From positions 1 through 50,230 of the IMG/VR virus record IMGVR_UViG_3300027743_000008: a stretch of DNA of 50,230 nucleotides; one strand, written 5' to 3'. The DNA comes from a virus. Lineage: Duplodnaviria; Caudoviricetes. Below the pieces are notes generated by a model. That model saw nothing but the letters and a program-made list of their open reading frames with translations. It made no database searches and had not been told where the DNA came from. Of the stretch, positions 945 to 50,230 are shown piece after piece (the stretch's first letter is position 1; the number at the start of each line of letters is the position of its first letter). Made by a program: the position numbers and the translations under genes.

Positions 945-2417
945 TTATTGCACGTCGACGACGCCAAAGCCGGTGACACGCGTGCTCACGGCGACGACAG
1001 GCTGCCCGTCCAATTCGGCCTTGAACGCCACGGCGTTGAAATCCGCCCGGAACGCGGCGTGTATCGTGGCGCGTTCCGCATCGGGCAACCGGGACAACAC
1101 GCAATCCTCGAAAGCTTCATCAATCTTGTAACCATCAAGGCTCATTTCGACGAAAGCGATCTGTCTCCGGAGCGACAACGGGACGTTTTCGAAACCGGGC
1201 AGTTTCCGGGCCAGGTTGATGAACGCCACCACGCGTTCACACGCCGCCTTGGGCGCGAACGTGTGATTTGCCAATGCCTGCGCCTCTAAAGCAGGGTCCA
1301 GATAGTCGACAACGATCATTCGCGCCATACGGTCGACCAGCGCCGCATTGGCCATATGCGTGCCAGCGTAAAGGCCGCTTTCGTCGCCGAAACCGCGTGT
1401 GTTGTCGGCGCAAACAAAACAGACGCCGTCCGCGCAACGAACGACTTCGCCCGTCGGCAACGTGATGCGGCGCGACGAAAGCAGGGTCTGCAACATGGCC
1501 GCGATGCCGGGAGGCGCGAACGTGATTTCGTCCAAAAGAATGATCATTCCCGGACGGCGGATTGCGCGTGTCAGCACGCCGTCCACCCAAACGGTTGCGC
1601 CGTTCACAAGGCCGTTGCCGCCGATGATATCGGCGGGCTCGACGGCCCGTTGGAACGTGATTTCAGTGTAGGGTCTCCCGGCACGCGCCGCGATCTGCTC
1701 CGGGAGGGTGGACTTGCCGGTTCCGGCCGGGCCAGCGAGCCATACGTTGCGCGGCACGCGTGGCAAGGCCGGATCGATGGCGCTGACAAGCTTGGAAAGT
1801 GTCAGCACGTCCGGAACGTGGAACGGATCGACGTCCGGCACGCCGTCGCTCGACTGCCATACGGAAATCGCCTTGTCGGCGTGCTTCATGCGGGACGAAA
1901 TGCCGAAAAGCTTTCCGATGGTCGACGCGCCGACACGCGCCGCCGGAACGAACGCGGGCGCGACGGTTGCGCCAGTGCTGTCGACGGTGACGGTTACCGT
2001 CTTTTCGACGATACGTTCCCGCTCGATCTCAACCGCTGGCTTGTTGGCAAGCGCGACAATCGGAGACAGCGCGTCGGTTACCGTTGCGAGTAGCGACGCG
2101 GACAAAAACGGCCGCAACGGCGACAGCACGGTTTCGGCCATGTCGCTGGCATCGGCTGCGGGCGCGTCGATCAAGGTTTCCGTCTCGGTTTCCGTCTCGC
2201 TTTCGTCCGATATGGCGTCATGCCATCCTGTCGCCATGTTCAGCACATTGGCGACATCGTCGCCTAGATCGAATTCGGCAACCGCCTTTGCGAGCAACGG
2301 GCCGTTCAACTGCCGGGACGCGAAACCGCCGTTGCGCGCCCGGAAGGCGTCAAAGCCGGAATGCTTTCGTACAAGGGCGCGGACGGCGTCGCGCTGTTGC
2401 TGATTTAGCTTTTGCAT
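945..2417 (-). CDS. CobS-like MoxR-family AAA+ ATPase
   Basis: Walker A GPAGTGKS, Walker B ILLDEI, ADNTRGFGD and NAALVDRM motifs; adjacent to the vWA partner gene. Confidence 0.88.
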   Translation of the reverse strand: MQKLNQQQRDAVRALVRKHSGFDAFRARNGGFASRQLNGPLLAKAVAEFDLGDDVANVLNMATGWHDAISDESETETETETLIDAPAADASDMAETVLSPLRPFLSASLLATVTDALSPIVALANKPAVEIERERIVEKTVTVTVDSTGATVAPAFVPAARVGASTIGKLFGISSRMKHADKAISVWQSSDGVPDVDPFHVPDVLTLSKLVSAIDPALPRVPRNVWLAGPAGTGKSTLPEQIAARAGRPYTEITFQRAVEPADIIGGNGLVNGATVWVDGVLTRAIRRPGMIILLDEITFAPPGIAAMLQTLLSSRRITLPTGEVVRCADGVCFVCADNTRGFGDESGLYAGTHMANAALVDRMARMIVVDYLDPALEAQALANHTFAPKAACERVVAFINLARKLPGFENVPLSLRRQIAFVEMSLDGYKIDEAFEDCVLSRLPDAERATIHAAFRADFNAVAFKAELDGQPVVAVSTRVTGFGVVDVQ

Positions 2418-2530
2418 GGTCGTTCTCTCATTCGGTTTTGGTCAATCGGCAATTGGCTTTGCCGCCCGGCAGACATCCGCCGGAAAATCACCATTACTAA
2501 AAAATGTAGCGGGAGACAACACATTTTTTC

Positions 2531-2720
2531 GACGTCTCCCGTCGCGCTCGGCGCTCGGCGCTCGGCGCTCGGCGCTCGGCGCTCGGCGCTCGGCGCTCGG
2601 CGACGGGAGACGGGAGACGGGAGACGGGAGACGGGAGACAGCCTCGCACGGGCGCGGGCGCGTCGCGCCGCAGGCGCGGGCGCGTCGCGCCGCAGGCGCG
2701 GGCGCGGGCGCGAGCGCCCG
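2531..2720. repeat. Non-coding GC-rich short tandem repeats: (GCGCTCG)x8, (GACGGGA)x5 and a duplicated GGCGCGGGCGCGTCGCGCCGCA
   Basis: Read directly at 2544-2599, 2602-2636 and about 2651-2710. Confidence 0.92.
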
Positions 2721-2739
2721 GCCCGGCAGGGGCCAGAAC

Positions 2740-2857
2740 CGAAATCCCCTATAGCAAAATCTGGAAATCCGAATTTTCCATGAAACCGAACGGTTTCGAA
2801 ATCTCCTATAGGAACTCCCCGAAATCCGAATTTTCCAGGAAACCCGACGCTTTCGAA
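2740..2857. repeat. Imperfect 57-bp direct repeat (2 copies), AT-richer than its surroundings
   Basis: cgaaatc(c/t)cctatag...gaaatccgaattttcca(t/g)gaaacc...tttcgaa starting at 2740 and at 2797. Confidence 0.85.
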
Positions 2858-3528
2858 CGGTGGGCGTCGCGGTGGCACTCGATGCAAAGCAGCTCCAGAC
2901 GGCACTTGCCGTCATGGAACTCCCGCCAACGCGATGCGCTGTCCGGATCGACGAATTTCGCCTGCGCCCCGCCACGGTCGGTTTTAGGCTCTCCCCAGAA
3001 CAGGGTCTCCTTTTCGACCCAGACCGCCAGCAACTCGCACAGCGTCACGCCTATCGAGTGATGCACGTCGAGCGCATCGCCGGACGACACCCGCCCGCAC
3101 GTCTCGCATCTGTCTCCTCTTCCCGCCCGGTAGGCGTCTATCGTCGGCTGCACCGCCCTTCTCGCGACCTGCACCATGAAGCTGCGATCCGAGCGCCTCG
3201 ACAACGCGCTCCTCCACGCGAACCCGTCGGCGAGAGACCCGTCCCTGTAGTGGACACGCACGGCGCGAGAGTTATCAAAACGAGGTCCAGCACGCGCTCC
3301 TTCGATGACCGCCATCTCGTTGGCCGTGATGATGTCGAAATGATCGATGTTGTCGAGCCTCCTCGAACTGTTGGTGTTGGTATGCCGCATCGCCACCAAC
3401 GCAGAAAAAAGTTCATGCCCGTGTCCAGTCAACGGTTGATGCAAGGGTTGGGCGCGCACGAAGGCGAGGACGTAATCTCCGGCAGCCTTCTTGGATGGAA
3501 ACTCCATATCGGCTATTTTGATCTGCAT
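2806..3528 (-). CDS. DCL/DUF3223-like protein with a C-terminal HNH-type Zn-binding nuclease fold
   Basis: N-terminal FPSKKAA...RH...DGS..F.W pattern; CETCG...LDVHH...W.EFH...LLCIECH. Confidence 0.6.
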   Translation of the reverse strand: MQIKIADMEFPSKKAAGDYVLAFVRAQPLHQPLTGHGHELFSALVAMRHTNTNSSRRLDNIDHFDIITANEMAVIEGARAGPRFDNSRAVRVHYRDGSLADGFAWRSALSRRSDRSFMVQVARRAVQPTIDAYRAGRGDRCETCGRVSSGDALDVHHSIGVTLCELLAVWVEKETLFWGEPKTDRGGAQAKFVDPDSASRWREFHDGKCRLELLCIECHRDAHRSKASGFLENSDFGEFL

Positions 3529-3591
3529 TATTTTTTAACCCCCTCACCGCGCCCCCGCCAGACCTCCCGACATGGATAAGTACCGGCACGC

Positions 3592-3720
3592 CAACTCTAC
3601 AAACTGAACCCTACAGTAGCGGCTTGTGCGAGACTGTCGAGTTGGGAGGCCCCCTTTAGGGGGACCAACTCGACATCGCCGAAAGTTCAACTCTACACTA
3701 TGTAGAGTTCAACTCTACAC
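3592..3720. repeat. Iterated CAACTC(T/G)ACA motif in direct and inverted orientation; candidate replication origin
   Basis: Direct copies at 3592, 3666, 3688 and 3710; inverted copies at 3636 and 3701. Lies immediately downstream of the primase-helicase gene. Confidence 0.6.
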
Positions 3721-6081: not shown

Positions 6082-6316
6082 AGGTGAAGTTCCTTTCGTG
6101 GGAGTTAAACCTTGGCAGTGTCGTCTTTGGCTAGAAGGCATTGTTAGCACGGGTTTCGTGAGCCGGTTAGGTTTTTTGAGTTCTCTCCCCTGACCGGATG
6201 CCGCGATGCCCCAGAGGCGGGACCATCTGCTTTGGTCGGCGGACCCCACCTCGCCCCTTTTCATGACGGCTCGCGATGCCCCCGCTCGCGAGCCGTTTTG
6301 CTTTCCGGGTCAGAGC

Positions 6317-9124
6317 TTAAAGCTTCCCATACCGTTCCGTCAGGATGCCGCCCTCGCTCGCGATGGGGAGACCGCTGGCCCATGCCGGTGGCGTCTCGAT
6401 GATCCGCTTCGCGTAGTCCGGATAGAAGCCGGGCGCGACCTCGAAGAGTAATTCGTCGTGGACCGACAGCACCAGCTCGGCGGCGAGGTCGGCGGAGACA
6501 CGCAGCGCGGCTTCGACGATGACGTCGCGAGCCACCGCTTGCGTCACGTTTTCCGCCAGCTTGGACCCCCACGTGCGGATCGGCTGCCACTGCTTGGTGT
6601 ACTGGTCGACGCCGTCGAACACGATGGCGGTATGATTAGGCTGGACCGGATCGACGACGAGGCGTGGGTTGCGATACCAAAGCTTTCTACCGGACGGCAG
6701 CTTGATCATGAGACAGGGATATCCGAAGCTATTGGCCACCACCATAACGATGCCGCGCGCATGGGTGGGGATGAACGGGTGCGTGATCGCCTGCTTCGCC
6801 GCCGCGTCCAAGTCCCACCAGAACTGTCTCGTATGGGCATTGGCGTCGCGCCATGCGGTGACGATTTCGAGGCTCTCCATCTTGGTGAGCCGAAGCCCGT
6901 TGGCCAACGCGAAGTCGACGAACGCTTCGTGGCCCATGCCGAAGCCCAGACCGAGGACCGCGACCTTGCCTGCCTTGCGTGAGCCAAGCCCCAGCCTGTC
7001 CGACGTGTGGGTGTAGACGTCCTCGCCCTTGCGGAAGACGTCAAGCACGTCGTTCTGGCCCGCCAGCCAAGCGAGAACCCTAGCTTCGATCTGCGAAAGA
7101 TCAAACACGAGGAACTGCTTCCCGTCCGAAGGGATGAGGCAACCGCGGAGACAGGCGGAGACAACAGCTAGGGGTTCGCCATAGAAGACCCCGAGGCCGT
7201 CGTTGCGCAGCCCCCCGAGGATCGCGTTGATCGCGTCGAGCGGGTTCCAGCCTTTTGGCGGGCGCGGGAAGTTCTGCGGCTGGATCAAACGACCTGAATT
7301 ATGGTGGATCAGTCCTTGGGCGACATAGCTTGCATCTCCTTCAACAGAGATGTCCCAAACTCCTCTTTCTCCCACAGGTGCAAGCGACCAAGCTTCTGCT
7401 TGTGCAGCGCCTGATGCCCTTTCGGCGTCACCAGAGCCAGATTGTCCAAGGTGTCGTTCGTCTTGTCTCCGTCGATATGGTGGACGTGCCAGCCCTCCGG
7501 CAGCTCCTTCAGTCCCAGCGCCGTCGCCATCGCGCTCCGGTGTTCGAAGGTGTAGCCATCGCCGTTCCACGTCGCCATTCGACCACTGTGCAAAACCCGT
7601 TTCACCGCGCTCTGTATGCCATAGTTGGGGTTCTTCGCCCCTACTCGGCTGCGAGAGTATGCCGCGCTCTTCAGGCGCTTGTATTCCGCCGGAGACAGCC
7701 GGGCTTTCAGCACCGCCCCCACGTTGTGCAGCGTCGTTCCCAACTTCGCCGCGACTTCCTCCATCGTGATGACCTGCGACCGATAGAGGCGTTCGACCTC
7801 CTCGCAGAACGAAGCGTCCGCCAGCATCTTCCTCGAAACACTCATCGATCCGTCTCCACCCCGTTTCCGTCATGATCCGGTGCGCCAGCGTCGCCTCGAC
7901 GAAAGCACCATCCGGCCCTTCGAGACGGTACATGGTCTCGATGCCTTTGTAAAATTTTGCCAGAACTTTCCGGGGTTGGCCACTGCCGCCGATGACGATG
8001 TCGCCGGGACGCAGCCCGATGATCCGTCGTGGCCCTTCCGGCGTGTCGACCAGCGTTCCGCCCGCAACGCAGAAGCGTCCCGTCCTCGCAGCGCCATAGT
8101 ATTGAAGCGTGCCGCGCACCCGGCCGTCGTTGTCGACCGTGTTCAGCATCGACTGGAGTTTCTTCACCGAGGACTTGGCGACCTTTTGTCTGATCGCCAG
8201 CACCTTGGTGCCGAGGGGAGACAGCCCGGCTTCAGGAGCCGTGTCCAGCGTGTCCTGGACCTCGTCCTTGCCGACGGTGGCCATCTTGACGCCTTGGCCC
8301 CATAACCAGCTCAGGAGACGTTGGGTCTGGGTGCCGGGAGACGTGACGTTGCCCCCGGTCAGGGCTTTGCACTCCGCGTCGAGCTTTTGGGTTTCTTCCT
8401 TGGCGATGCCGATCAGCGTGTGGATCAGGGGGATGTCGAGCCTGATGCCCTTGTCGTTGGCGATCCGGTCGAGGCGAGACACGGCTTTCTCGTAATCGGG
8501 CAGCTCCGGCGTAAGCTTGCACACGGCGCGCTCGGCGATTACGTCCTGCTTACAGTAAGCTTCGAGCGCAGACAGTTTTCCCAGATCGACGTCGTGCCAG
8601 AACGTGCCGTCCTGTTTTGGCCTGCACATCTGCATCATCAGGCGATGCCCGGCGACGTCCTTCAGGAGAGACGGAGCCAAACCGAGGGCTGGCCCGGCGT
8701 GTTCCAGCTTGGCCGGAAGCCCGGAGTACAGCGCCCGCTGCATGGAGCAGATCGCTTGGCGCGGGTCCATCTGCTTCACGCCGAACCAGTTGGTGATGAA
8801 GGCCCACTCGAAAGCCGCGTTCCACGCCACGAACTTCCCGTCCGAGGCGAGGTGCTGCGAGACATCGTGCGGCAGGCTTTTCGGCATCGTCACCGAGGAG
8901 ACGGGGCCGTCGTCGAACGCCCACGCGATGACCGTCACGATGGTATCCGGGTGCCGGGAGTAGGCGCTCGCGCCGACCTTGCGCAAATCTAGGGTAGAGG
9001 CTGTCTCCAGATCGAGGTGCAGCAGTCGGCGTTCCGGGAACACCTTTCCGGCAACCGAGGCCCGCGCATCCAAGTCCCCGATCCTTTTGATGATGGCCAT
9101 CAGGTCGTCGATGCCCACGCTCAT
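6317..9124 (-). CDS. polA: Family A DNA polymerase (APSE-like) interrupted by an intein
   Basis: Exonuclease motifs LDLET, AWNAAFE and YCKQDV; TGRF|SGRLIQPQN; motif A DLSQIEARVLAW; motif B RKAGKVAVLGLGFG; motif C VHDEL. The ATG at 9124 overlaps the upstream stop (ATGA). Confidence 0.95.
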   Translation of the reverse strand: MSVGIDDLMAIIKRIGDLDARASVAGKVFPERRLLHLDLETASTLDLRKVGASAYSRHPDTIVTVIAWAFDDGPVSSVTMPKSLPHDVSQHLASDGKFVAWNAAFEWAFITNWFGVKQMDPRQAICSMQRALYSGLPAKLEHAGPALGLAPSLLKDVAGHRLMMQMCRPKQDGTFWHDVDLGKLSALEAYCKQDVIAERAVCKLTPELPDYEKAVSRLDRIANDKGIRLDIPLIHTLIGIAKEETQKLDAECKALTGGNVTSPGTQTQRLLSWLWGQGVKMATVGKDEVQDTLDTAPEAGLSPLGTKVLAIRQKVAKSSVKKLQSMLNTVDNDGRVRGTLQYYGAARTGRFCVAGGTLVDTPEGPRRIIGLRPGDIVIGGSGQPRKVLAKFYKGIETMYRLEGPDGAFVEATLAHRIMTETGWRRIDECFEEDAGGRFVLRGGRTPLSVAGHHDGGSRGEVGNDAAQRGGGAESPAVSGGIQAPEERGILSQPSRGEEPQLWHTERGETGFAQWSNGDVERRWLHLRTPERDGDGAGTEGAAGGLARPPYRRRQDERHLGQSGSGDAERASGAAQAEAWSLAPVGERGVWDISVEGDASYVAQGLIHHNSGRLIQPQNFPRPPKGWNPLDAINAILGGLRNDGLGVFYGEPLAVVSACLRGCLIPSDGKQFLVFDLSQIEARVLAWLAGQNDVLDVFRKGEDVYTHTSDRLGLGSRKAGKVAVLGLGFGMGHEAFVDFALANGLRLTKMESLEIVTAWRDANAHTRQFWWDLDAAAKQAITHPFIPTHARGIVMVVANSFGYPCLMIKLPSGRKLWYRNPRLVVDPVQPNHTAIVFDGVDQYTKQWQPIRTWGSKLAENVTQAVARDVIVEAALRVSADLAAELVLSVHDELLFEVAPGFYPDYAKRIIETPPAWASGLPIASEGGILTERYGKL
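7298..8071 (-). mobile_element. Intein (258 aa) in the DNA polymerase
   Basis: Block A CVAGGTLVDT, block B ATLAHRIMTETGW, block F VWDISVEG, block G IHHN followed by Ser. Removing it restores TGRFSGRLIQPQN. Confidence 0.95.
7309..7845 (-). CDS. HNH homing endonuclease encoded in the +1 frame inside the intein
   Basis: N-terminal HTH-like segment, NUMOD3-like GAKNPNYG, and EHR...LG..LP.GWHVHHIDGDKTNDTLDNL...H...H. GGAG lies 8 nt upstream of the ATG. Confidence 0.9.
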   Translation of the reverse strand: MSVSRKMLADASFCEEVERLYRSQVITMEEVAAKLGTTLHNVGAVLKARLSPAEYKRLKSAAYSRSRVGAKNPNYGIQSAVKRVLHSGRMATWNGDGYTFEHRSAMATALGLKELPEGWHVHHIDGDKTNDTLDNLALVTPKGHQALHKQKLGRLHLWEKEEFGTSLLKEMQAMSPKD

Positions 9125-10047
9125 GGCTTCACCCGCGTGAACAGCCGGTGCAGCTCTTCGTGGTCGCGCCAGTTGACCTTGGTCGAGCGCACCGGGATGA
9201 CTTTTCCCGAGGCGAGGTGCCGTTGGTGGGAGCGCCGCCAATGGGGGACCGGGGAAGCGTGATGGCCTGTTTGGCCGGGATTTCGCTTGATCGAAGCCAC
9301 GGCGTGCTGGAACAGGGAGACATAGTCGCGTGTCTCCACCCGCGTATGCGCCGGGATCGGAGATTTCCCCTTGAGCGCCCGTTGCTTGTTGAGTTTTTCC
9401 GGGGCCGGGACGTCGACGACCGGCACAGAGGCGTCAGCCAAGAGACGCAGCATCGTCACCAGCGGATCGAGCATGTTGGCCCCGCGCTTTCCGGCTTCGG
9501 GCTGCCGGTTGAAGACGGCGTCGATCATCGGGACCGGGTTTATCACGGTCACGCCGTCTTCCACGCTGATCGCGCAGATGTCGTTGACCACCACCGCCAG
9601 CGGCATGTCGGGCGAGGCGACGCCGTAGATTTCGATGACGATGGACGCCTTGCCCCCCGAGAACGGCGAGACGAAATAGCCGCACATGCCGCCCTCCCAC
9701 GACGAGACGCCGATCCACTCCTCGTATGGGTGCTGGAGTTCGCCTGCTTCGAACGCGTCGCGTGTCCGGGTGCTTGTCTCCTTCAGCAGGTTGTTGGGCA
9801 GGAAGCCGAAGTCGATCATCCGGCCCTCGCGGATGGTCTCCTGAACCGTCTCGATCATCGTGTTGACGAGGTTCGCGCTGGTGCTGGGGATGTCGAGCAT
9901 CGGGCTGAACGCGAACAGGCCGTCGAGCGCGGCGTTGCGAAAGCTTGCTGCGCTGCGGATCGGGTGCTTGTCGAAATCCTCCATGATTTTGATCATGGTG
10001 GCTCTAGCCAGTTTCGGGGGCAGGCTGCCGGGGACGTCGACGCTCAT
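9121..10047 (-). CDS. Hypothetical phage protein with a C-terminal HASP.PHWRRSH.R basic motif
   Basis: 308 aa ORF, strong SD (AAAGGAG), stop coupled to the polymerase start. Confidence 0.8.
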   Translation of the reverse strand: MSVDVPGSLPPKLARATMIKIMEDFDKHPIRSAASFRNAALDGLFAFSPMLDIPSTSANLVNTMIETVQETIREGRMIDFGFLPNNLLKETSTRTRDAFEAGELQHPYEEWIGVSSWEGGMCGYFVSPFSGGKASIVIEIYGVASPDMPLAVVVNDICAISVEDGVTVINPVPMIDAVFNRQPEAGKRGANMLDPLVTMLRLLADASVPVVDVPAPEKLNKQRALKGKSPIPAHTRVETRDYVSLFQHAVASIKRNPGQTGHHASPVPHWRRSHQRHLASGKVIPVRSTKVNWRDHEELHRLFTRVKP

Positions 10048-10188
10048 GGGCGGGTTCTCCTTTGGTCGGTCCGGGGAGCCTTACATAAAAAAGTGTCGCA
10101 GGCCAACTTAAAAATGTAGGATTTTTTGTTGACCTTGGATGCGTCGGCGTGTACCCCTGTCGCAGCAATCGCCCCCGGAGTGACGAAA

Positions 10189-10440
10189 ATGCCCAAGCTG
10201 AAGCCAGATAGAGCGTTCCCGCACTACAAGTTTCGCGATCTTCTCGCGGCAGTGGGGAGCGACCAAGAGATATCTGACCTGATCGCCTCGCACGGCTTCG
10301 ACCGCCCGACGTTACCCGTCATAAGGGGCTGGCGCTCGCGCAACTCGATCCCGTCGCGGTGGCTGCCGCTGATCCTGCACCGGGTGATCTCCAACGGCGA
10401 CCTCAAGAACATGACGTCGCTGCTTGAGGAGCCTTTCTAG
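10189..10440 (+). CDS. Cro-like HTH DNA-binding protein
   Basis: GGAG upstream; VIRGWRSRNSIPSRW pattern; first gene of the divergent rightward operon. Confidence 0.65.
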   Translation: MPKLKPDRAFPHYKFRDLLAAVGSDQEISDLIASHGFDRPTLPVIRGWRSRNSIPSRWLPLILHRVISNGDLKNMTSLLEEPF

Positions 10441-10512
10441 ATGGTGACCGGGGGAGCCAGCCTGCTGGCCGTCGTCGCCTTCTTCATTTTCTTGGCGATC
10501 ATGGAAGACTGA
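10441..10512 (+). CDS. 23-aa hydrophobic peptide MVTGGASLLAVVAFFIFLAIMED
   Basis: ATG abuts the upstream stop, GAGGAG lies upstream, and it fills the gap exactly. Confidence 0.5.
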   Translation: MVTGGASLLAVVAFFIFLAIMED

Positions 10513-10533
10513 CCAGACCAAAGGAGAGAACCG

Positions 10534-10929
10534 ATGTCCAAGCTGACCTGCGCGCCACGCCCCTGCGCGTCCTGCCCCTACCGCAAGGACGCGCCGTCCG
10601 GGCTGTGGGAGCGGAACGAATACGACAAGCTGCCCGCCTATGACGGAGACATCCCGGACCAATTATTCGCCGGGGCCGTCGGCGTGTTCCTGTGCCACCA
10701 GCGAGACGAGAATTTGTGCGCCGGATGGGTTGCCGCGCACGGGGCCGGGAACCTTCTGGCGCTGCGCATGGCCCGCGACGTGGACGAGGCGGTGTTCTCC
10801 TACGAGACCGACGTGCCGGTGTTCAAGTCCGGTTCCGAAGCGTGGCGGCACGGGATGAAGGACATCCACGCCCCCGGCCCGAAGGCCGTGCGCCTGATGG
10901 ACAAGCTGGCCAGAAAGATAGCCCGATGA
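10534..10929 (+). CDS. DUF6283-like Cys-rich protein
   Basis: PCASCPYRKDAPSGLW...FLCHQ...CAGW; strong SD. Confidence 0.75.
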   Translation: MSKLTCAPRPCASCPYRKDAPSGLWERNEYDKLPAYDGDIPDQLFAGAVGVFLCHQRDENLCAGWVAAHGAGNLLALRMARDVDEAVFSYETDVPVFKSGSEAWRHGMKDIHAPGPKAVRLMDKLARKIAR

Positions 10930-10988
10930 TCTGGCTTATCGTTTTCGCGGCGAACTTCCTGCTCGTCACCCTGTTGGTCAACCGATGA
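10926..10988 (+). CDS. 20-aa hydrophobic peptide MIWLIVFAANFLLVTLLVNR
   Basis: ATGA overlaps with both neighbours. Confidence 0.5.
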   Translation: MIWLIVFAANFLLVTLLVNR

Positions 10989-11452: not shown

Positions 11453-11473
11453 CCGACCAAAAGGAGAGAACCG

Positions 11474-11740: not shown

Positions 11741-13053
11741 TGAACCTCTTCCCATACCAAGAGGACGCCGTCGCCCGGATCACGGCGTCTCCGGACCCGA
11801 CCTATCTGGCTTTCGAAATGGGCCTCGGTAAGAGCGCCATCGCCTTGGAGACAGCCAAGCGCCGGGGCGTGAAGCGCCTTCTCATCATGTGTCCGTCGGT
11901 GGGCAAGCTCGTCTGGGCCAAGGAGATCGCCAAGTGGTGGCCGGGGAACCATGTCGTGGTGGTCAACAGCCCCGGCGATCTTGGCTTGTGGGACGAAGGC
12001 ATCTTCATCCTGCCCTACTCGCGTGTCTCCACCGACCGGGAGTTCGCCGACACCGTCATGCTGGGAGCGCCGTTCGAAATGACGGTGCTGGACGAAGCCC
12101 ACGCCTTGAAGAACCCCGGCGCGAACCGCACCAAGGCCGTCCTCAAGACCATGCTGCCGAAGCTGGGCTTCGTGCTGCCGATGAGCGGCACCCCGACGCC
12201 CAACCATCCGGGCGAGCTGTTCCCGATCCTGCGAACGGTGTTCCCGGAGACCGTGCGCAAGTCCGATGGGAAACTCATGCGGCAGGCCGAGTTCGAAGAC
12301 GCCTACTGTCAAGTGGTCAACCGATGGTTCGGCGGCAGATCGATCAGGACCATCGAAGGGGCCAAGAACGGAGACATCCTCAAGGCGAGGATACGACCTT
12401 ACTTTCTGCGGAAGACCAAGAAGGAGGCGCTTCCCGAGTTGCCCGACATGACCTTCGACACCTATCCCATCGCGGCACCCGGTGCGCCGGACTGGGGCTT
12501 CGATTTCTCGACAATCGACGACGACGAGATCGAAATTCTGCTGTCGTCTCCCGACCGCCACGTCATGCGGATGCGGCACCTCACGGGATTGGCCAAGGTT
12601 CCCGGCGCGGTCGAGGCCATCGTCGACATGCTGGATAGCTGTCGGCGCAAGGTGCTGGTGTTCGCCCACCACACCGACGTGATCATCGGCCTGATGTCGA
12701 ACCTCGCCGCCTACAATCCGGTCGCGATCACCGGAGAGACGACATCCGCGAGCCGTGCTCACGCGGTCGACAGGTTCCTGAACGATCCGAAGTGCCGGGT
12801 GTTCGCCGGGAACATCACCGCAGCCGGGACGTCGATCACGCTGGTCGGAGACAAGGCCGATGTCTCCGACGTGTTCTTCGTCGAAGCGGATTATTCCCCC
12901 GGCAACAACGTCCAAGCCGCGTCTCGCATACACCGGATCGGCCAGAAGGACGCCGTCCAAGTCTGGTTCCTCACCGCGCACGGCACCATCGACGACCGCA
13001 TCCAAGAGATTTTGGTCCGCAAGACGCGGGACCTCAAGGAGTTGTTCGGATGA
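11740..13053 (+). CDS. SNF2-family (DEAH) helicase
   Basis: LFPYQ, EMGLGKS, LDEAH, SGTP and QAASRIHRIGQ motifs. Start trimmed to the ATG at 11740. Confidence 0.92.
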   Translation: MNLFPYQEDAVARITASPDPTYLAFEMGLGKSAIALETAKRRGVKRLLIMCPSVGKLVWAKEIAKWWPGNHVVVVNSPGDLGLWDEGIFILPYSRVSTDREFADTVMLGAPFEMTVLDEAHALKNPGANRTKAVLKTMLPKLGFVLPMSGTPTPNHPGELFPILRTVFPETVRKSDGKLMRQAEFEDAYCQVVNRWFGGRSIRTIEGAKNGDILKARIRPYFLRKTKKEALPELPDMTFDTYPIAAPGAPDWGFDFSTIDDDEIEILLSSPDRHVMRMRHLTGLAKVPGAVEAIVDMLDSCRRKVLVFAHHTDVIIGLMSNLAAYNPVAITGETTSASRAHAVDRFLNDPKCRVFAGNITAAGTSITLVGDKADVSDVFFVEADYSPGNNVQAASRIHRIGQKDAVQVWFLTAHGTIDDRIQEILVRKTRDLKELFG

Positions 13054-16117: not shown

Positions 16118-16125
16118 GAGGGGAA

Positions 16126-19516: not shown

Positions 19517-20248
19517 TCAGAACCTCCTGCCCGGCAGCGGCTGCGCCTTGGGTACGCCCGCTTGGCCTATCGTCCTGACGTTGAACAGCTCGGCAAGCGG
19601 GGCCATCGAGTTTTCGAGTTGCGCCAAAAGTTTCGGGGCCGGACTCGGAGTCGGAGCTGCTTGGCCCGTGTCTCCAAGGTCTGTCTCCAAGGAGACATTT
19701 GGTGTCTCCTGTCTCCTGCCCTCTCGCAGCATGGGTTGGGCTTCTTCGGTCCTTCTTGTCGACGAAGCCGAAGGCAAGCTTCCAGCCGAGGTCTCGGCCA
19801 ACGCATTTATTTCATCGCGGCCCGGCGGCGTCTGCACGATGCCGTTCGCCAGCAGCGTGCCGATATCGGGCGGCGGCGCAAGGGACGTCGCGTTCCCTGC
19901 ACCGCCGCCACGCGCGCCAGCGAGTTCGATGTGCCAGTTCTCGTTTCCCAAGGGGAAGCCGAGGCCGTACCTCGCCGCATTGTCATGCGCCCACTGCAAC
20001 GCCGCCGGGCTTGCGAATTGGAGGTCCGCAGCCAGCCCCTTGTTGTGGTAGCTGTGGCCGGGCGGCGCAACCCATTTTCGCGCGGCTTGGGGCGAGCCAT
20101 ACTTCTGGAGCGCCCTGTTCCAGAGCTGTTGCTGTCTCGCGACATCGCGATAGCCGGACCCGACCGAGATGCCGGGGCTGGCCGCGATGAAGCTCTGGAG
20201 CGCGCTCCCGAAGTTCGGCACGAAATCCTGAAAGCCGGAGAAGGCCAT
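19517..20248 (-). CDS. M15-family (VanY-like) peptidoglycan peptidase, virion-associated
   Basis: SGYR...QQQL, APPGHSYHNKGLAADL, NAARYG and ENWHIE motifs. Confidence 0.87.
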   Translation of the reverse strand: MAFSGFQDFVPNFGSALQSFIAASPGISVGSGYRDVARQQQLWNRALQKYGSPQAARKWVAPPGHSYHNKGLAADLQFASPAALQWAHDNAARYGLGFPLGNENWHIELAGARGGGAGNATSLAPPPDIGTLLANGIVQTPPGRDEINALAETSAGSLPSASSTRRTEEAQPMLREGRRQETPNVSLETDLGDTGQAAPTPSPAPKLLAQLENSMAPLAELFNVRTIGQAGVPKAQPLPGRRF

Positions 20249-30547: not shown

Positions 30548-31663
30548 TCAAGCGATGTCGATAACGAGAGACGAGTTGAACTGCTTGCCGATGAGCTGGC
30601 AGGTCGAGGTGATCGACCGATACATGATGAACTTGTCGGCCGGACGCGCCGGGGTGTGCCGGTGCATCCACTCGTCCTCCATGCACATCAGCATGATCTT
30701 CTTGCTGTCGAACCAGTAGGCGCGCTTCGACAGGCCGAGGTCGTCGAGGGTCGGGTCGTAGACGACCTCCGTCCCGGCGAAGTTCATCGAACCCATCGCA
30801 CCATCCTGAGTGCCTTTGAAGCCACCCATCGAGTAGTTGCCGTTGGCCCTGATCTCCGTCTCCATCGCGCCGATGAAGGCAGACCCGGCGATGAACGTGT
30901 CAGGCTCGCCACCGTACTTGGTCAACTGCCGACGCTCGGACTGGAGTACCTGCAACAGAGCGCCGCCGTTGGCGATGTTGGAGGTGATCGCACCTCCGCC
31001 CCACGCCGCCAGCGCCGGGGTGCCGGTGACGAGGGTGCCGAAAGCCGCCGTGTAGGCGCGGTTCCTCCACCACTCGTTGCCCGCCGTGGCGCGGTTGATG
31101 CCGCCGACGATGCCGGTGGACGGCGTGTCGGAGATCAGCAGCTTGAGACCGGCGAGCGCCTTGGCGTCGGCGACACCGTCGCCGTAGAGCAGGGCGTTCA
31201 TCTTGCGGGCGTACTGCTCGCCGAGGTCGAACAGCTTGTCTTCGAGCAGGCCGACGAGGACCGTCATCTCGCGACGCGAATGCTCGGTCGTCTTCTCGCC
31301 GTTCGAGCCGGGATCGACGACGGAGATGCCGTCGATCTTCAGCTCGGTGTGGGTCATGGTGAGACCGATGTGATGCTCGCGCCACGGGTAGGCGGCACGC
31401 TTGATGTTGGCGGGCGTGTAGAAGACGACCTGATCGTCGTGGGTGTAGCCCTTGACGCTGTCGTTGACGCCAGCCGCGCCGAAAGCGCCGGAGACAGCAA
31501 TCGAGATGTCTCCCTTGCCGCCGGGAAAGTACTTCTTGCGGGAGACCATCTTGTCGAACAGCGGTCGCTTCTGAAGCGACTGCCGCCAGACGTCACCCTT
31601 GTCGAGATAGTAGTCCAGCGCCGCATTGGCGATGTTGGTGATTTCACCAGCCGTGAAGGCCAT
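30548..31663 (-). CDS. Major capsid protein
   Basis: 371 aa, after the scaffold gene and followed by a terminator; LYGDG...L.GL, GGINRAT..WW.N and YDPTLDD motifs. Confidence 0.88.
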   Translation of the reverse strand: MAFTAGEITNIANAALDYYLDKGDVWRQSLQKRPLFDKMVSRKKYFPGGKGDISIAVSGAFGAAGVNDSVKGYTHDDQVVFYTPANIKRAAYPWREHHIGLTMTHTELKIDGISVVDPGSNGEKTTEHSRREMTVLVGLLEDKLFDLGEQYARKMNALLYGDGVADAKALAGLKLLISDTPSTGIVGGINRATAGNEWWRNRAYTAAFGTLVTGTPALAAWGGGAITSNIANGGALLQVLQSERRQLTKYGGEPDTFIAGSAFIGAMETEIRANGNYSMGGFKGTQDGAMGSMNFAGTEVVYDPTLDDLGLSKRAYWFDSKKIMLMCMEDEWMHRHTPARPADKFIMYRSITSTCQLIGKQFNSSLVIDIA

Positions 31664-37412: not shown

Positions 37413-37430
37413 GAGAGTTCCTTTCGGGTT

Positions 37431-39471: not shown

Positions 39472-39473
39472 GG

Positions 39474-41865: not shown

Positions 41866-41900
41866 CTGCCGTGTCTCCCCGGCTCATCTGGCCGTGTCTC

Positions 41901-45568: not shown

Positions 45569-45639
45569 CAGCGAGTTCCCTCGCCGACGCGAGTGACATC
45601 ATCGGTTGCCGATATCGGCGACAAGCGGCATTTCCTCGA

Positions 45640-46074
45640 TCAGGTGATGCGGACGATGGCGTTGCCAGCGGTCTGCGCCGGGAAGGTGATCGTGAAGTCC
45701 CCGGCGCTCGACACCTTGTCGGAGCCGAAGTCCAGCACGGCGACGCTCTTGAGGCCGTTGGTCGAATTGTAGATCTGAGCGCCCCGGGCGGTGATCGAGG
45801 ATGTCGCCCATGTGGTGGTGGCAAAGGAGACACAACCCTCGTTGGCGTTCAGCACGGGCGTGATGTTGGTCAGCGTGTTGCCCCCGGCGGTGTAGTTGGT
45901 GCCGCTCGACTGGTTGGCGAGGCCGCTCGAATAGACCGCCACGGTCGGGTCCAGCACCGCCGCCGCCAGATAGAGAGCGATCTTGAAGACATTGCCGGTG
46001 GTGACGGTGAAGTTGTGCTGCCCGAGCAGCACCTCGTTCTTGAATGCGTGGCTTACGCCTGCGGTGATGGCCAT
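45640..46074 (-). CDS. Conserved virion structural protein
   Basis: MAIT....FK.E.L.G.HNF...FKIALY...ITARGA.IYN...VLDFGSDK pattern. Confidence 0.78.
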   Translation of the reverse strand: MAITAGVSHAFKNEVLLGQHNFTVTTGNVFKIALYLAAAVLDPTVAVYSSGLANQSSGTNYTAGGNTLTNITPVLNANEGCVSFATTTWATSSITARGAQIYNSTNGLKSVAVLDFGSDKVSSAGDFTITFPAQTAGNAIVRIT

Positions 46075-46077
46075 GTG

Positions 46078-46368
46078 TCAGTCCCTCATGGTTAAGACGA
46101 GAGCGGCAGCTTCATGCATTCCCGCCTGCGTCAACTGGTGGATGATGGTGGTGTGGTTGGACAATACCGCGTTGCGAATGCCTGCCGCCAGCACCGCCCG
46201 GACGCTGTCCCGGTAGGCGAGCGCCTGATCGCGGATGGGGGCTGGCGCGTCGTTCGAAACGTGGATGATCTGCGCGGTGATGTCGTCCACCCAGAACGCC
46301 ACCGGGTGTCCTCCGCCGCTCGACGTGGTCACCTTGAACAGGCCCAGAGAAGTCCCGCTGCTGCTCAT
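46078..46368 (-). CDS. Conserved hypothetical phage protein
   Basis: VTT..GGH...FW...II.VS..AP..IRDQA.A pattern; ATGA coupling. Confidence 0.7.
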   Translation of the reverse strand: MSSSGTSLGLFKVTTSSGGGHPVAFWVDDITAQIIHVSNDAPAPIRDQALAYRDSVRAVLAAGIRNAVLSNHTTIIHQLTQAGMHEAAALVLTMRD

Positions 46369-47681
46369 GCCGTATCGATCCAGACATCGTTGACGGAGGG
46401 CGATGCCGGGGCCACGGAACCAATCGTGATATGCCCCCCGGTGACTTCGTCTTCGGCCGGAACGACAACGCCGCCGCCTCCGGCAGTTTCGAACCAAGTG
46501 ATGAAAATCCGGCTGTCGGCACCCGGAGCCGTGGTGAAGGTGATGACGGCACCGGCTGCGGTGTAAGAGGAAATCGGCTCCTGCACGACGCCGTCGAGGG
46601 AGACCAGAAGCTCCTCGGTCCGCTGGACGTCGACGACCTTGGAGCCGTCCTTGGCCCACAGCGGAAAGACGTTCAGCACTCCGTTCATGCCGGTCAAGGG
46701 TACGAGGCTCCACGCCTTCACGGTCCCCGGAGACAGCTTTTCGACCGGCACCAGCACGTCGATGGAGACCATGTCTCCAGCCCGAAGAGGGCGCAAAAGG
46801 GTGACGACAGAGGTGGTTTCGTCTACAACCCAGTCGCCATCGGTGGCGCTGACGGGTTTTGGCATGATGCGGATGCCATTTACTGAAACGTCAAGTTGTT
46901 CCGGGTATTCATCATCAAGAACAAAGGTTCGGCCGTCCAAAGCTGGCGTCGTCAGCGGGAACACGGTCTGGCCCGCGACGGCCCTGTACCAGAGGGTCAG
47001 CATCCCAGCCCTTTGCGGGTTGAGCATGACATCCCGTATCTCGTCGCCGATCAAACGGGCCTGATGCGCCCACCAGCGCGACGACCAGTGATCGCCCGTG
47101 ATGTCCATGATCTTGACGGCATTATCAGGGAGCGTGTCGGGCATGTGCTCGGCCCAAAGTGCGCTCGACAGCGCCCAAGCCTCTGCCTCAGCAGCCGCAT
47201 CGTCGAAGTCGGTGCGGGTTTCGGCAGCCTTTTCAAGGAGTTGCTCGGTTTCGTCGAGCCTGACATTGAGCAATTGAAGCTGGATAAAAGCGGTGTTTTT
47301 GGCCGCTAAGGCCCGGTCTCCGGCCACTAGGGCGACGCTTGAGGCCGATTTTGCCTCGATTTCGGCCAAAACAGCCCGTTTTTGGGCTGTTTCGGTGCTC
47401 TCGTAGAGGTCCAGCACCCTCCGGACGACCTCTTTGGTCATCTCCTCAAGCTTTTGCTCGAAAAAGCCGAGAACCTCGGGCTGGAAGCTGTCAAACGACA
47501 CGATTTCGTTGCGGAGAGCGCCATCCGACCGCAAAAGCCGGGAAACAGTGGCCTCAAGCTCGAAAATCCTCTGGTTCTGGGCGTCGAACGACGCATCCAG
47601 CATGTCTCCGGGCGGGGGTTCCCTAGGGTGATGCTGCGTCCAGTCGCTGAAGCTAAACGCGCGCCGGAGAATGCCCAGCAT
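46365..47681 (-). CDS. Tail fibre or fibre-anchor protein
   Basis: AAGGAG upstream; FSFSD...P..LD..F N-terminus, coiled coil, AGQTVF and LDGVVQ.P...Y....ITF..AP beta repeats. Confidence 0.72.
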   Translation of the reverse strand: MLGILRRAFSFSDWTQHHPREPPPGDMLDASFDAQNQRIFELEATVSRLLRSDGALRNEIVSFDSFQPEVLGFFEQKLEEMTKEVVRRVLDLYESTETAQKRAVLAEIEAKSASSVALVAGDRALAAKNTAFIQLQLLNVRLDETEQLLEKAAETRTDFDDAAAEAEAWALSSALWAEHMPDTLPDNAVKIMDITGDHWSSRWWAHQARLIGDEIRDVMLNPQRAGMLTLWYRAVAGQTVFPLTTPALDGRTFVLDDEYPEQLDVSVNGIRIMPKPVSATDGDWVVDETTSVVTLLRPLRAGDMVSIDVLVPVEKLSPGTVKAWSLVPLTGMNGVLNVFPLWAKDGSKVVDVQRTEELLVSLDGVVQEPISSYTAAGAVITFTTAPGADSRIFITWFETAGGGGVVVPAEDEVTGGHITIGSVAPASPSVNDVWIDTA

Positions 47682-47721
47682 TCGGCACTCCTTATATATG
47701 GAAGCAGCAGCAGGTCTTGGT

Positions 47722-47973
47722 CTAGCTTGGTTTGCTGGCCTTGTCGATCTCGGCATCAAGCTCGGAGAGGCTGAGTTCGGTGAGGGGCCTTTCGTTGGCG
47801 CGGGCGATCTCCTGAAGCCTTCCGATGTCGCCGAGGCTTTCAAGAAGGGTTCGGGCTGCGGCAGCTCGGGCGGCGGGTGCGGCAGCCTTGTCGTCGGCAA
47901 CCGCGAGGAGCGCCTGCGTCGCCACCCGACGGATTTCGTCCTTCACCGGGAGGGCTTTCGGTCTGGTCGGCAT
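47722..47973 (-). CDS. Small helical protein, terminase small subunit candidate
   Basis: AAGGAG upstream; AR.AAA.TLLE..G and ELSL.EL pattern; first gene of the late block. Confidence 0.5.
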   Translation of the reverse strand: MPTRPKALPVKDEIRRVATQALLAVADDKAAAPAARAAAARTLLESLGDIGRLQEIARANERPLTELSLSELDAEIDKASKPS

Positions 47974-48158
47974 GCTGTCTCCTTATGCTTAAAAAACAGG
48001 GGGGTATCCGGAGGTAAAATACCAGAATTTCAGGGACGTAAAAAAGCGAAAATTTCCGGGTTGAGGGGCAAACTCGCGCGGCGACCCGGCGCGGAGGCGG
48101 GGCAGGGGTCGGCCTCGGCAAGTGGGCTAAGTGCTTGATATCGCTACGCTTTCCGGCT

Positions 48159-48257
48159 TGTCTCCTGTCTCCTGTCTCCTGTTATAACATACGTTAAATT
48201 GCTCACTGAGCACTTGCTCCTAGCTGCCACGGAGACACGTCTCCCGTGTCTCCCGTG
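48159..48257. repeat. (TGTCTCC)x3 plus an inverted GGAGACACG/CGTGTCTCC arrangement
   Basis: Read directly at 48159-48179 and 48228-48257. Confidence 0.85.
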
Positions 48258-48299
48258 TGGTACTCTGATACCACATTTCACCCATCAAATCGTGAGCAA

Positions 48300-48722
48300 C
48301 TATGCGCCCGTTAGCTCTACCCACGCGCCGGGAGACAGCGCCCGGTTTCGCCATGCTTCGAATAAGCGTCCGCGATCAATCGGAGACAGCGGCAAAGCGA
48401 CGTCGAGCGGGAAACCGTCAGGCGCGTTGCCGGACCCTATCCGCGCCATAGCCTTGCGCGGGCGACGCAACGTCGCTTGCGTGACGTCGACGCCTGCGGC
48501 GCGTCGCGCCCATCTATGCCCGCCGTGCTTATGGCAGCATGCCGCGCCGTGGAGCGCGTCGAGCCGACAACGCTGGCCAGTGGCACGGGCGACGGCGACG
48601 CATTGGCGGCGGTTAGGATGGCCGTCTCCGAAACGGGACTGATAGCCGGGAAACGTGCTGTCGAGCGTAACCTTACGCATGGGAATGCGCCATGACGGCC
48701 GGTTTTTGCTTTTAGCTGCCAT
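48300..48722 (-). CDS. HGGxSTG-like Zn-binding protein
   Basis: RRQC.A....TG.RC...A..G...C..HGG; GGAGG upstream. Confidence 0.7.
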   Translation of the reverse strand: MAAKSKNRPSWRIPMRKVTLDSTFPGYQSRFGDGHPNRRQCVAVARATGQRCRLDALHGAACCHKHGGHRWARRAAGVDVTQATLRRPRKAMARIGSGNAPDGFPLDVALPLSPIDRGRLFEAWRNRALSPGAWVELTGA

Positions 48723-49083
48723 TGCAACCTCCCGGTTGCGCCCGACAGGGGCGCGGTTGTAGAGACAGTGCTTTGTGTCTCTTGTTTTGCATTGCTTTGA
48801 GTTTACTTGAAAGCGCGTTTTCGGCCTGTCTCCGGAGACACGAAACCGCGCAAAACGTGAGTTTCCACCTTGGAAAGAATACTACCGCTTTTCTGGTATG
48901 CGACAGCATCACTCTGGACGCGCCCGATTGTGAGAATAAAATTCTATGCCTTCCTTGCCACGGGGACGGCCCGTACAGAGGCACGGGCCTGCGGACTAGT
49001 TTGGATGCCTCCGGAAATGCAACCGCTCCGTAGGGCCTCCCCGTGGCCGGGAAATCGAAGTTCCATAATACCGGAACCGGCCC

Positions 49084-49115
49084 AAAAACAAAGGCCGCGC
49101 CATTGGCGCGGCCTT
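49084..49115 (-). terminator. Rho-independent terminator after the cobT-like gene
   Basis: AAGGCCGCGCCA-A-TGGCGCGGCCTT followed by TGTTTTT on the minus strand. Confidence 0.75.
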
Positions 49116-49139
49116 GTCAGGCGCGATAGGGCGCTGGCG

Positions 49140-50230
49140 CTATTCGCGGGCGAGTGCCTTCACGAGCGCGTTGAGACCGGCCCGCGTGATGTCGCGGCTG
49201 TCGCATTCGACGGCAAGGCCGAAACCCGGATGCACTGGTGTATCGATGCACAGCACGGCGGTTTCGACGTCGAGGCGTCGAGCGTAGGCGTTTGCGCTTT
49301 TGACGCCTTCCGGCCCATAGGCGCAATCGCCATCCGTCACCACGAAAAGCACTTTGCGTTTGGCGGGCGCGCGCGCCGCAAGCTTGGCGCTGGCTTGGAC
49401 AATCGCGCCCGTAATGTCTGTGCAACCGGCCGGGTTTGTCGCTAGCGACGCGAAACGGTTTTGGACGTCCGCCTGCGACAAGCTTTCATTGGGCCGCTTG
49501 ACGGCGCGTGGCGTTCCCTCCGTGAAACGCGTGATGCCGCACTTGACGCCGACTTGCTTGGCCGCTTGCGCAATAACGAGTGCCAGCGTCGCCGTGGCGT
49601 ATGCGGCCTTGCCCCGCATCGAAGCCGAACCGTCGCAGAGGATTTCGATTTCGGTCTGATAGCCTCCCGCGATGGTACGTTTCGCGAAAACCGAATTGTC
49701 TCCGCTTGCGACGCGGGCATAGGCGAAACGATCGAGACGGCCCGTCGGGCGCGCCCGTTCCCAAGTTTCGGTTTCCTCCGATTTCAGGACACGGGCGACT
49801 TGCGCCCGGAGTTTCCCGGAACGCGCCGCAACGGCGCGCAAGTTGGTTGTGGTGGCATTGTCCGGGCCGCGATTGGCCATATGCAGGAACGGTTTCCCGG
49901 CAGTTTCTTGCGCCCGGCGGATCGCCGCGATAACCGCCATTTCGACTTGCGCGGCATGGCCGCTTTTCGAAAGCGCGTCGACGGTATCCCTCAACGTTTC
50001 CGACATCGGTTGCATATCGACCTTGGCGCATTTCGTGACATCGGTCTGCGGCAAGTCGGCGGCGTCGCCGTCGCCCATGCCCGCCTTGCCGTCGCCGTCG
50101 CCTTGCGCCGCACCCTTGGAAGGCTCTCCATCGGCCTTGGAGGCGTCGCCATCGGCCTTTGCCTCTCCATCGGCCTTGGAGGCGTCGCCATCGGCCTTTG
50201 CCTCTCCATCGGCCTTGGAGGCGTCGCCAT
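49140..50230 (-). CDS. 3' part of the CobT-like protein: vWA domain
   Basis: GRLD, ILCDGSASM (MIDAS DxSxS), GCTD and KVLFVVTDG motifs; continues from 818..1 across the join. Confidence 0.87.
   Translation of the reverse strand, partial: GDASKADGEAKADGDASKADGEAKADGDASKADGEPSKGAAQGDGDGKAGMGDGDAADLPQTDVTKCAKVDMQPMSETLRDTVDALSKSGHAAQVEMAVIAAIRRAQETAGKPFLHMANRGPDNATTTNLRAVAARSGKLRAQVARVLKSEETETWERARPTGRLDRFAYARVASGDNSVFAKRTIAGGYQTEIEILCDGSASMRGKAAYATATLALVIAQAAKQVGVKCGITRFTEGTPRAVKRPNESLSQADVQNRFASLATNPAGCTDITGAIVQASAKLAARAPAKRKVLFVVTDGDCAYGPEGVKSANAYARRLDVETAVLCIDTPVHPGFGLAVECDSRDITRAGLNALVKALARE
50134..50230. repeat. 97-bp terminal duplication of bases 1-97 (assembly overlap inside the 39-bp repeat)
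   Basis: Direct sequence identity with the window start. Confidence 0.92.

Follow-up and report, generated by a model that had tools for sequence, protein, structure and literature searches.

GGAGACA, a heptamer iterated throughout a phage genome, as a possible lineage-specific recognition word

The virus record IMGVR_UViG_3300027743_000008 (Duplodnaviria; Caudoviricetes), which was analysed over its whole length of 50,230 bp and is called the window here, carries the heptamer GGAGACA (TGTCTCC on the other strand) far more often than expected by chance. In total, we found 108 exact copies, about one per 465 bp (about 2 per kb), which is an excess of about 17-fold. This enrichment is real and strong, and none of the known systems that we tested explains it. 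Our favoured reading, to which we assign a probability of roughly 0.4, is that GGAGACA may be a lineage-specific recognition word that co-evolves with a phage-encoded factor and marks the phage's own DNA. A preliminary description, made by eye from the sequence, had put the number of copies at about 105, and all ten of its example coordinates are in the exact list; the GC content, given there as about 65%, was measured as 63.7%.

In dinucleotide-preserving shuffles of the window (n=100), the word occurred 6.28 times on average (standard deviation 2.29, maximum 13), in line with the six or so copies that had been expected from base composition, and none of the 100 shuffles reached 108. As described before, the word is non-palindromic and occurs in both orientations, in several reading frames and in every module of the window. 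The copies are split into 48 on the + strand and 60 on the − strand, one per about 0.9 kb per strand, and no switch between + and − copies, as strand polarity would give, was seen along the window. Ninety-two copies lie within 43 gene segments (50 in sense and 42 in antisense orientation, in all three phases), while 16 are intergenic.

When synonymous codons were shuffled within genes (n=200), which keeps the proteins and hence the dipeptides, 10.5 ± 3.0 coding copies were obtained (maximum 21), compared to the 92 observed. Resampling with motif-free codon usage gave 7.2 copies and shuffling of the codon order 5.3. Because so few copies arise under the protein-preserving shuffle, the data support that selection on the DNA, and not on the proteins, maintains the word. 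This had been suspected from the disfavoured codons GGA, ACA and TCT in the sites, and these codons are indeed enriched there. GGA accounts for 25 of 29 glycine codons inside sites and 169 of 1317 outside, ACA for 20 of 26 threonine codons inside and 76 of 1020 outside, and TCT for 12 of 42 serine codons inside and 79 of 957 outside. Altogether, the word fills 92 of the 232 places (40%) at which it is synonymously possible.

All seven positions of the word are sharply defined, and its flanks hold no information. Variants with a single substitution are mostly present in 0–18 copies, and only GGAGACG (39) and GGAGACC (26) are raised. Close pairs of sites are in excess, with 13 gaps of at most 25 bp compared to 5.7 expected (P=0.0025, 2000 simulations); the spacing is otherwise Poisson-like (coefficient of variation 0.95, largest gap 2070 bp). 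Some copies double as ribosome-binding sites, since 14 of them have a start codon 1–8 nt downstream that opens a reading frame of at least 80 codons.

The window also avoids 6-bp palindromes. Among the 39 with an expected count of at least 8, 19 are present at 15% of expectation or less, for instance GCCGGC (0 observed vs 77 expected), CGATCG (1 vs 62), GGCGCC (0 vs 52) and CCGCGG (2 vs 49). CCATGG, ACCGGT, CTCGAG, GGATCC, GAGCTC, AGGCCT, CGTACG and CTGCAG are all absent, with 14–20 copies of each expected. The set of purged palindromes differs between relatives; within lineage 1 (see below), word-bearing genomes purge 12–19 palindromes and word-less genomes 2–20. Such strong avoidance suggests that the DNA of the window is probably unmodified and was shaped by nuclease pressure. 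The possibility that the word is a by-product of palindrome avoidance was rejected, since the codons concerned are not next to palindromes that are purged.

Words in related phages and in host genomes

We surveyed heptamers in 54 IMG/VR loci that were found with the head protein, taking the three best-scoring heptamers of each locus. GGAGACA was among these three in 5 of the 54 loci (L006, L007, L015, L030 and L039). Other loci had words of their own, namely GGAGACC (L010), CTGGACA (L041/42), CCGGACA (L049), CGGACAC (L021), GAGACAA (L045 and L048) and [CG][AG]AGACA (L028/29), and many had no word at all. Counted in single genomes and loci, the copies observed vs expected were 89 vs 5.0 for GGAGACA in G002, 68 vs 4.2 for GGAGACC in L010, 89 vs 4.5 for CAGGACA in Microcystis phage Mae-Yong1326-1, 75 vs 8.4 for CGGACAC in G006, 70 vs 4.4 for CAGACAC in G265 and 28 vs 3.3 for CCGGACA in L049. 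In the prophage L058 of Brucella anthropi, GAAGACA was found 25 times in 21 kb, with 2.1 copies expected. G007 has 99 copies of the 6-mer TGGACA, and G010 has 129 copies of GAGACA and 101 of AAGACA. Only mild excesses, typical of codon usage, were seen in N65, G003, G008, G009 and G011.

Related phages had been named in the preliminary description as a place in which the word could be tested. They turned out to have their own words or none. The word thus belongs to the phage lineage and varies from one relative to another, a result that goes beyond that description. The words of the clade share a constant GAC(A), and the triplet preceding it varies. This pattern, NNN+GAC(A), would be as expected of one family of readers with drifting specificity.

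In G002 the word and its density are the same as in the window, and we compared the sites of the two phages in the aligned sequences. Two of 27 aligned sites are shared (2 of 30 when read the other way). Most sites differ in amino acid between the two phages, and sites often cost amino-acid changes. Because so few aligned sites are shared, it is the density of the word that is maintained and not its positions; the sites turn over.

GGAGACA is not a host word. We examined 201 genomes from the likely host order, taken to be that of a related prophage's host. In all 201 genomes the word was present at no more than about one copy per 7 kb, mostly about twice the count of the reversed control word, compared to one per 465 bp in the window. 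These candidate hosts thus lack the enrichment, and the analogy with host-wide words such as Chi, HIP1 and uptake sequences, put forward in the preliminary description, was not supported, as strand polarity is missing as well. In the B. anthropi genome that carries L058, GAAGACA occurs 688 times in 4.1 Mb and the control word 407 times (1.7-fold); the density of the word in the prophage is 7 times that in this host genome, and its orientation is mixed along a 388-kb host contig. Strand polarity seemed to exist in hosts, as 19 of 19 sites listed for three contigs fell on the same strand, but this arose from the way in which the sites were listed. Counted in full, G175:C1 has 22 sites on the + strand and 10 on the − strand, and the orientation of the control word was mixed in that check. 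Moreover, in Mae-Yong1326-1, whose genome ends are known, no polarity towards the ends and no two-arm pattern was found.

Arrays of the word and the CobS/CobT-like genes

Tandem arrays had also been noted before. We found them upstream of both a cobS-like gene and the late operon, and there is a further cluster of copies inside a single gene (Table 1). The 7-bp array upstream of the cobS-like gene sits 185–223 bp from the start codon at 2417 and reads, on the − strand, TGTCTCC followed by four CGTCTCC, with the exact site at 2634–2640. The same intergenic region harbours the abutting tandem repeat of another word, GAGCGCC/GCGCTCG, and, 95 bp upstream of the start codon, the single copy within the loop of an inverted repeat. 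In the control region of the late operon, the three abutting copies lie directly downstream of a TATAAC-like hexamer. A variant pair, AGAGACA...TGTCTCT, is located 50 bp upstream of the 14-bp palindrome. In G002, six GGGAGACAC repeats were found upstream of its cobS, so that arrays stand directly upstream of cobS in both phages, and G006 and Mae-Yong1326-1 have arrays made of their own words. Since the spacings in the arrays of intergenic control regions vary (7, 9 and 11 bp), they argue for each heptamer being read independently, if the words are read as such.

The CobS-like protein belongs to the MoxR class of AAA+ ATPases and has, in addition, about 200 aa of helical sequence at its N terminus. 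Its closest solved folds are NorQ/CbbQ, and it models as a remodeller of the NorQ/CbbQ type in which the helical N-terminal region is unmatched. A DNA-binding fold of this region was considered and rejected (model pLDDT 77; the Foldseek matches cover the AAA+ core only). The cobT-like gene spans the ends of the window, continuing from 818 down to 1, and its open reading frames (ORFs) are open at both ends; the VWA domain and an acidic coding repeat lie in its C-terminal part. What the record gives as a 'direct terminal repeat' is a 39-bp coding repeat of the acidic linker of this gene, identical at 1–104 and 50124–50230. Because the terminal repeat is cobT-like coding sequence, the ends of the window read as an assembly join inside the gene. 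The contigs G002, G006 and G007 also end in the cobT-like 39-bp repeat.

A MoxR-class AAA+ gene followed by a VWA gene is the gene order of the cobaltochelatase pair. Viral CobS/CobT 'cobaltochelatase' auxiliary genes are presented, in the parts of two papers that deal with them, as an AAA+ gene and then a VWA gene with an acidic linker (PMC8651126, PMC9503304), and the window has the same two-gene module. Unlike the CobS equivalog, however, the window protein carries the additional N-terminal region and scores 72 bits with TIGR01650, compared to a cut-off of 558.55. For the CobT of a relative no NCBIfam match was found, and no third conserved gene accompanies the pair.

Only one conserved gene correlate of a strong word emerged, the CobS/CobT-like pair, and the correlation has exceptions. 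In a gene-content test, GC3-filtered ORFs of 11 whole genomes (6 word-bearing and 5 word-less) were clustered by blastp. CobT was the only cluster present in all six word-bearing genomes and in none of the five word-less ones. CobS was present in four of the six and again in none of the five; the two misses are contigs that end inside the CobT repeat. G006 has 14 ORFs that gave no tblastn match in G009, its sister without a word. Of these 14, CobT alone is both shared with three or more other word-bearing genomes and missing from all word-less ones. In the tree of the head protein (major capsid protein, MCP), at least three word-less lineages without CobS/CobT are placed inside the word-bearing clade (G003, G009 and G008/G011).

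A blind prediction was made for further relatives. From 80 loci found with a terminase profile we obtained 19 contigs of at least 34 kb, of which 14 were taken and five, less than 90% complete, were left out. The prediction held, as among the 14 only G265 has this CobS and CobT, and it also has the strongest word. Within lineage 1, the five genomes with a score L of at least 30 all carry CobS/CobT, and none of the 14 genomes without it exceeds L=24. Three prophage hosts with a word-bearing prophage encode a full-length phage-type CobS (E=1e-107 to 5e-88). Going by matching contig numbers, it is located 2–3 kb from the prophage locus in two of these hosts, and the third has it on a separate contig. 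In the remaining seven prophage hosts, the genomes gave matches to the AAA core only or no matches. The 'strong words' of L099, L102, L124 and L125 are a coding tandem repeat of the acidic linker of CobT and not dispersed, and were excluded from the counts.

A second, unrelated lineage (L353–L361; G283, G293 and G294; phages of 56–60 kb) shares only CobS/CobT with the window. In these phages the 8-bp palindrome ACAGCTGT, which contains a CAGCTG site, occurs 22–43 times with about 1 copy expected (43 vs about 0.8 in G293). The counts were 43, 26 and 22 in three CobS-bearing genomes and 5, 5 and 0 in three that lack CobS. As the groups are nested in the tree, they provide no independent contrast.

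Table 1. Positions of the word, its arrays and paired sites, and the CobS/CobT-like genes in the window
Feature	Position	Strand	Remarks
Dispersed GGAGACA/TGTCTCC copies (n=108)	1162..49703	both	exact match
Tandem 7-bp array	2602..2640		period 7, 5.4 copies, 100% matches
Tandem heptamer repeat GAGCGCC/GCGCTCG (other word), 8.4 perfect copies	2544..2602		abuts the GGAGAC(G/A) array
Single copy in the loop of an A/T-rich inverted repeat (AAAAAATGT...ACATTTTTT)	2512..2518	+	read from the sequence
Three abutting GGAGACA	48159..48179	−	low-GC intergenic, upstream of the late, tail-side operon
Inverted pair GGAGACA-N9-TGTCTCC	48231..48253		same control region as the triple copy at 48159..48179
Abutting divergent pair forming the 14-bp palindrome TGTCTCCGGAGACA	48827..48840		intergenic
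Five copies in 48 bp	19669..19716		inside a VanY-domain gene (19517–20248, − strand)
Inverted pair GGAGACA-N8-TGTCTCC	9316..9337		exact match
Similar inverted pairs	12847–12867 (N7), 31490–31513 (N10)		exact match
cobS-like gene, 490 aa	945..2417	−	PF07728 AAA_5, E=2.5e-21; PHROG 249
cobT-like gene, C-terminal part	49140..50230	−	VWA_2, E=1.3e-8; CobT_C, 26.1 bits vs cut-off 21
cobT-like gene, N-terminal part	1..818	−	start ATG at 818; PHROG 1576

The proposed reading and its rivals

From the enrichment beyond codon and protein constraint, the differing words, their absence from hosts, the turnover of sites, the arrays and the gene correlation, we tentatively infer a protein reader, its encoding by the phage, a part for CobS/CobT and a use of the marking. 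GGAGACA would be an asymmetric site, each copy of which is read singly by a co-evolving phage-encoded factor. Selection on the density of the word, on both strands, would mark the whole chromosome as own DNA, and the tandem arrays in the two control regions, upstream of the cobS-like gene and of the late operon, would be sites of high occupancy. Because the CobS/CobT-like pair is the only conserved gene correlate, it might belong to the reading machinery or depend on it, for example as a remodeller of a word-bound protein. We consider it doubtful, though worth stating, that in this clade the pair, for which a cobalamin auxiliary role is the widespread annotation, instead belongs to a system of self-DNA marking that reads the phage-specific word, or acts on a protein bound to it, with word and reader co-evolving as NNN+GAC(A). 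The small terminase as reader is unsupported; the ORF upstream of the large terminase subunit, which was picked automatically and unreliably, is 80% identical in G006 (word) and G009 (no word). The literature searched contained no description of this word, nor of a link between CobST and a word.

To hold a 7-mer at a density of 2 per kb, the phage gives up codon choice and amino acids, and at the same time it purges many palindromic restriction sites. Together with the differing words of sister phages, this implies an unrecognised, fast-evolving sequence-reading function that would be private to each phage. Chi, uptake sequences, KOPS and stoperators are iterated words each of which revealed a DNA-handling machine, and the words described here are a direct handle for finding the reader. 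If the CobS/CobT-like pair is involved, an 'auxiliary metabolic' annotation that is very common in viromes would need revisiting.

Several observations weigh against this proposal. G007 and G010 have CobS/CobT but only moderate 6-mers (3.0–3.5-fold), whereas G269 and G275 lack the pair and yet have CAGACA-type words at 2.9–6.5-fold, and G268 has a different AAA gene and TCAGACA at 7.7-fold. In G265 the cobST region (first 4.8 kb) holds none of the 70 sites, and many distant CobS homologues are found in contigs without a strong word. In the second lineage, G295 has CobS but only 4 copies of ACAGCTGT. The published reading of viral CobST, as given in the part of the paper that treats it, is cobalamin supply (PMC8651126). 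Moreover, nothing DNA-specific was found in CobS, whose fold is like that of the protein remodellers NorQ/CbbQ. In G003, G008 and G011 the whole early module differs and not just cobST, and a rank test over all 28 genomes, uncorrected for phylogeny, gave only P=0.024.

When tested as a Chi-like, a T7-primase-like or a stoperator-like site, the word fell short in one or more of the tested features each time. The stoperators of Cluster A mycobacteriophages and the C1 operators of phage P1 are asymmetric sites that are read singly, with tens of copies dispersed over a 50-kb genome; their consensus (13–17 bp, about 20–35 copies) differs between related phages and co-evolves with the reader. Stoperator-type sites are located in short gaps between genes and have one orientation to transcription. 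The word of the window is likewise asymmetric, dispersed over a 50-kb genome and different in related phages. However, it is only 7 bp long and present in 108 copies, most of which (92) are in genes without a fixed orientation. No repressor or integrase was found among the 44 ORFs of the window in Pfam and PHROGs scans; three word-bearing relatives have integrases (see below). The clt sites of TraB (Streptomyces plasmids) and the KOPS/SRS of FtsK/SpoIIIE are asymmetric words of 7–8 bp in tandem arrays that are read by ring ATPases. An element-specific, short asymmetric word in tandem arrays is found here as well, but no FtsK/TraB-like gene was found among the 44 ORFs; the ring ATPases of the window are limited to the primase-helicase, the terminase and the MoxR-type CobS-like protein. 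Uptake sequences and HIP1 are also genome-wide, with the density maintained and the positions not conserved. These are words of cellular genomes that phages share, whereas the word of the window is the phage's alone and changes between sister phages.

The word could instead be read by a DNA-tracking enzyme of the host, AddAB/RecBCD in a Chi-like manner or another host factor, and protect incoming or cut phage DNA, each phage matching its own host. Like Chi, it is a short asymmetric sequence, a 7-mer, kept at high density by selection on the DNA and with multiple abutting copies, among them a triple; abutting Chi copies raise recognition by the translocating enzyme. In addition, the words differ between phages with presumably different hosts, and the avoidance of palindromes points to heavy nuclease pressure. 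A host enzyme is nevertheless unlikely, given that the word is not enriched in any of the 201 order genomes and that its density in phage or prophage is 7- to 12-fold that of the host. In the one prophage–host pair the host has a mere 1.7-fold excess in mixed orientation, strand polarity is lacking in the window and, after full counting, in G175:C1, and Mae-Yong1326-1 shows no polarity towards its ends. A role as template recognition site of the phage primase, also raised in the preliminary description, would let the dispersed copies start Okazaki fragments on both strands and the arrays or inverted pairs mark origins. The distance between copies on one strand is that of Okazaki fragments (~0.9 kb), and all words of the clade contain GAC, thus GTC on the other strand as in TGTCTCC, which is the core of the T7 primase site. 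Arrays and inverted pairs are located in A/T-rich intergenic DNA, and the window primase-helicase has a PriCT_2 domain, of the class that gives template specificity in AEP primases. This enzyme, however, consists of PriCT_2 and AAA_25 only and is not of the T7 kind, which has DnaG/TOPRIM with a zinc finger, and the word does not co-vary with the primase. Although G002 has the same word as the window, a match between the two primase-helicases covers only 13% of the length, at 27% identity. The N-terminal types do not sort with the word either, Mae-Yong1326-1 and G265 (word) sharing a type with N65 (no word), and G009 keeps the replication module at 41–61% identity yet has no word. A pattern scan with the window primase-helicase gave no relative, and we rejected the primase as improbable reader.

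Sequence-specific modification of the word by the host or by an unrecognised phage enzyme, with the density serving protection or packaging, seems very unlikely to us. The words do resemble restriction–modification specificities (asymmetric 5–7-mers, and the 8-bp palindrome ACAGCTGT), and several contain type IIS sites such as GTCTC, GGTCTC and GAAGAC. In agreement with the preliminary description, though, no methyltransferase was found, neither in the Pfam/PHROGs scans of the 44 ORFs nor in six-frame searches with PF01555, PF00145, PF02086 and PF02384. The extreme avoidance of palindromes argues that the DNA is not generally protected, and more sites would raise, not lower, the exposure to a cognate nuclease. 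Finally, the word could have no present function and be a product of biased mutation, repair or gene conversion, or the decaying relic of a lost system. The positions of sites are not conserved, the near-variants GGAGACG and GGAGACC are raised, and moderate words are found in genomes without the candidate genes (G269 and G275), as relics would be. On the other hand, a word that is sharp at all seven positions, fills 40% of its synonymous opportunities, forces amino-acid changes and is arranged in control regions as perfect tandem arrays and as palindromic pairs makes such an origin quite improbable, and we know of no repair bias that gives a 17-fold excess of one heptamer.

The phage genome and its relatives

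The DNA of the window is near-identical to soil and sediment metagenome DNA from several studies. The comparison with assembled contigs of public runs gave 557 differences and no reported starts or ends of molecules, though contigs would not reveal nicks. Among the structural and lysis genes, those for the terminase large subunit, the major head protein, an SU10-type adaptor, tail proteins and an endolysin could be named with PHROGs and Pfam. Genes of the replication type encode a family A DNA polymerase, the PriCT_2+AAA_25 primase-helicase, RuvC and an SNF2 helicase. In addition, a DUF2800 nuclease, an Enc34-type single-stranded DNA-binding protein, and the CobS-like AAA+ ATPase and CobT-like VWA protein were found. 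The sole helix-turn-helix protein is a GerE/LuxR-type protein of 89 aa. Integrases are present in the word-bearing relatives Mae-Yong1326-1, G007 and G010.

By head protein, the closest named phages are Microcystis phage Mae-Yong1326-1 (64% identity) and Rhizobium phage RHph_N65 (46%). We also found 14 prophage relatives in bacterial genomes, the majority in Rhizobiales-type hosts (Brucella anthropi, Devosia, Bradyrhizobium, Aminobacter and Rhodopseudomonas) and the others in other or unresolved taxa. Mae-Yong1326-1 (OP028995.1, L001) has a GC content of 72%, its relatives are prophages of Rhizobiales-type bacteria, and the best match of its CobS is a Devosia protein according to the section of the original paper on this gene (PMC9503304). 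For these reasons, a heterotrophic alphaproteobacterium looks likelier than Microcystis as its host.

The family A DNA polymerase ORF of the window (6317–9241, − strand) is 974 aa long, compared to about 650–770 aa in relatives. Residues 391–429 give a weak Hint_2 match (21.3 bits, under the cut-off of 28.4), and the ORF may contain a candidate intein. A variant of the phage from a soil metagenome, about 2% diverged, is represented by a 32.6-kb contig that has other DNA at the positions corresponding to 10049–10088 and 10421–10978 of the window; the replaced stretch includes a DUF6283 gene (10534–10929).

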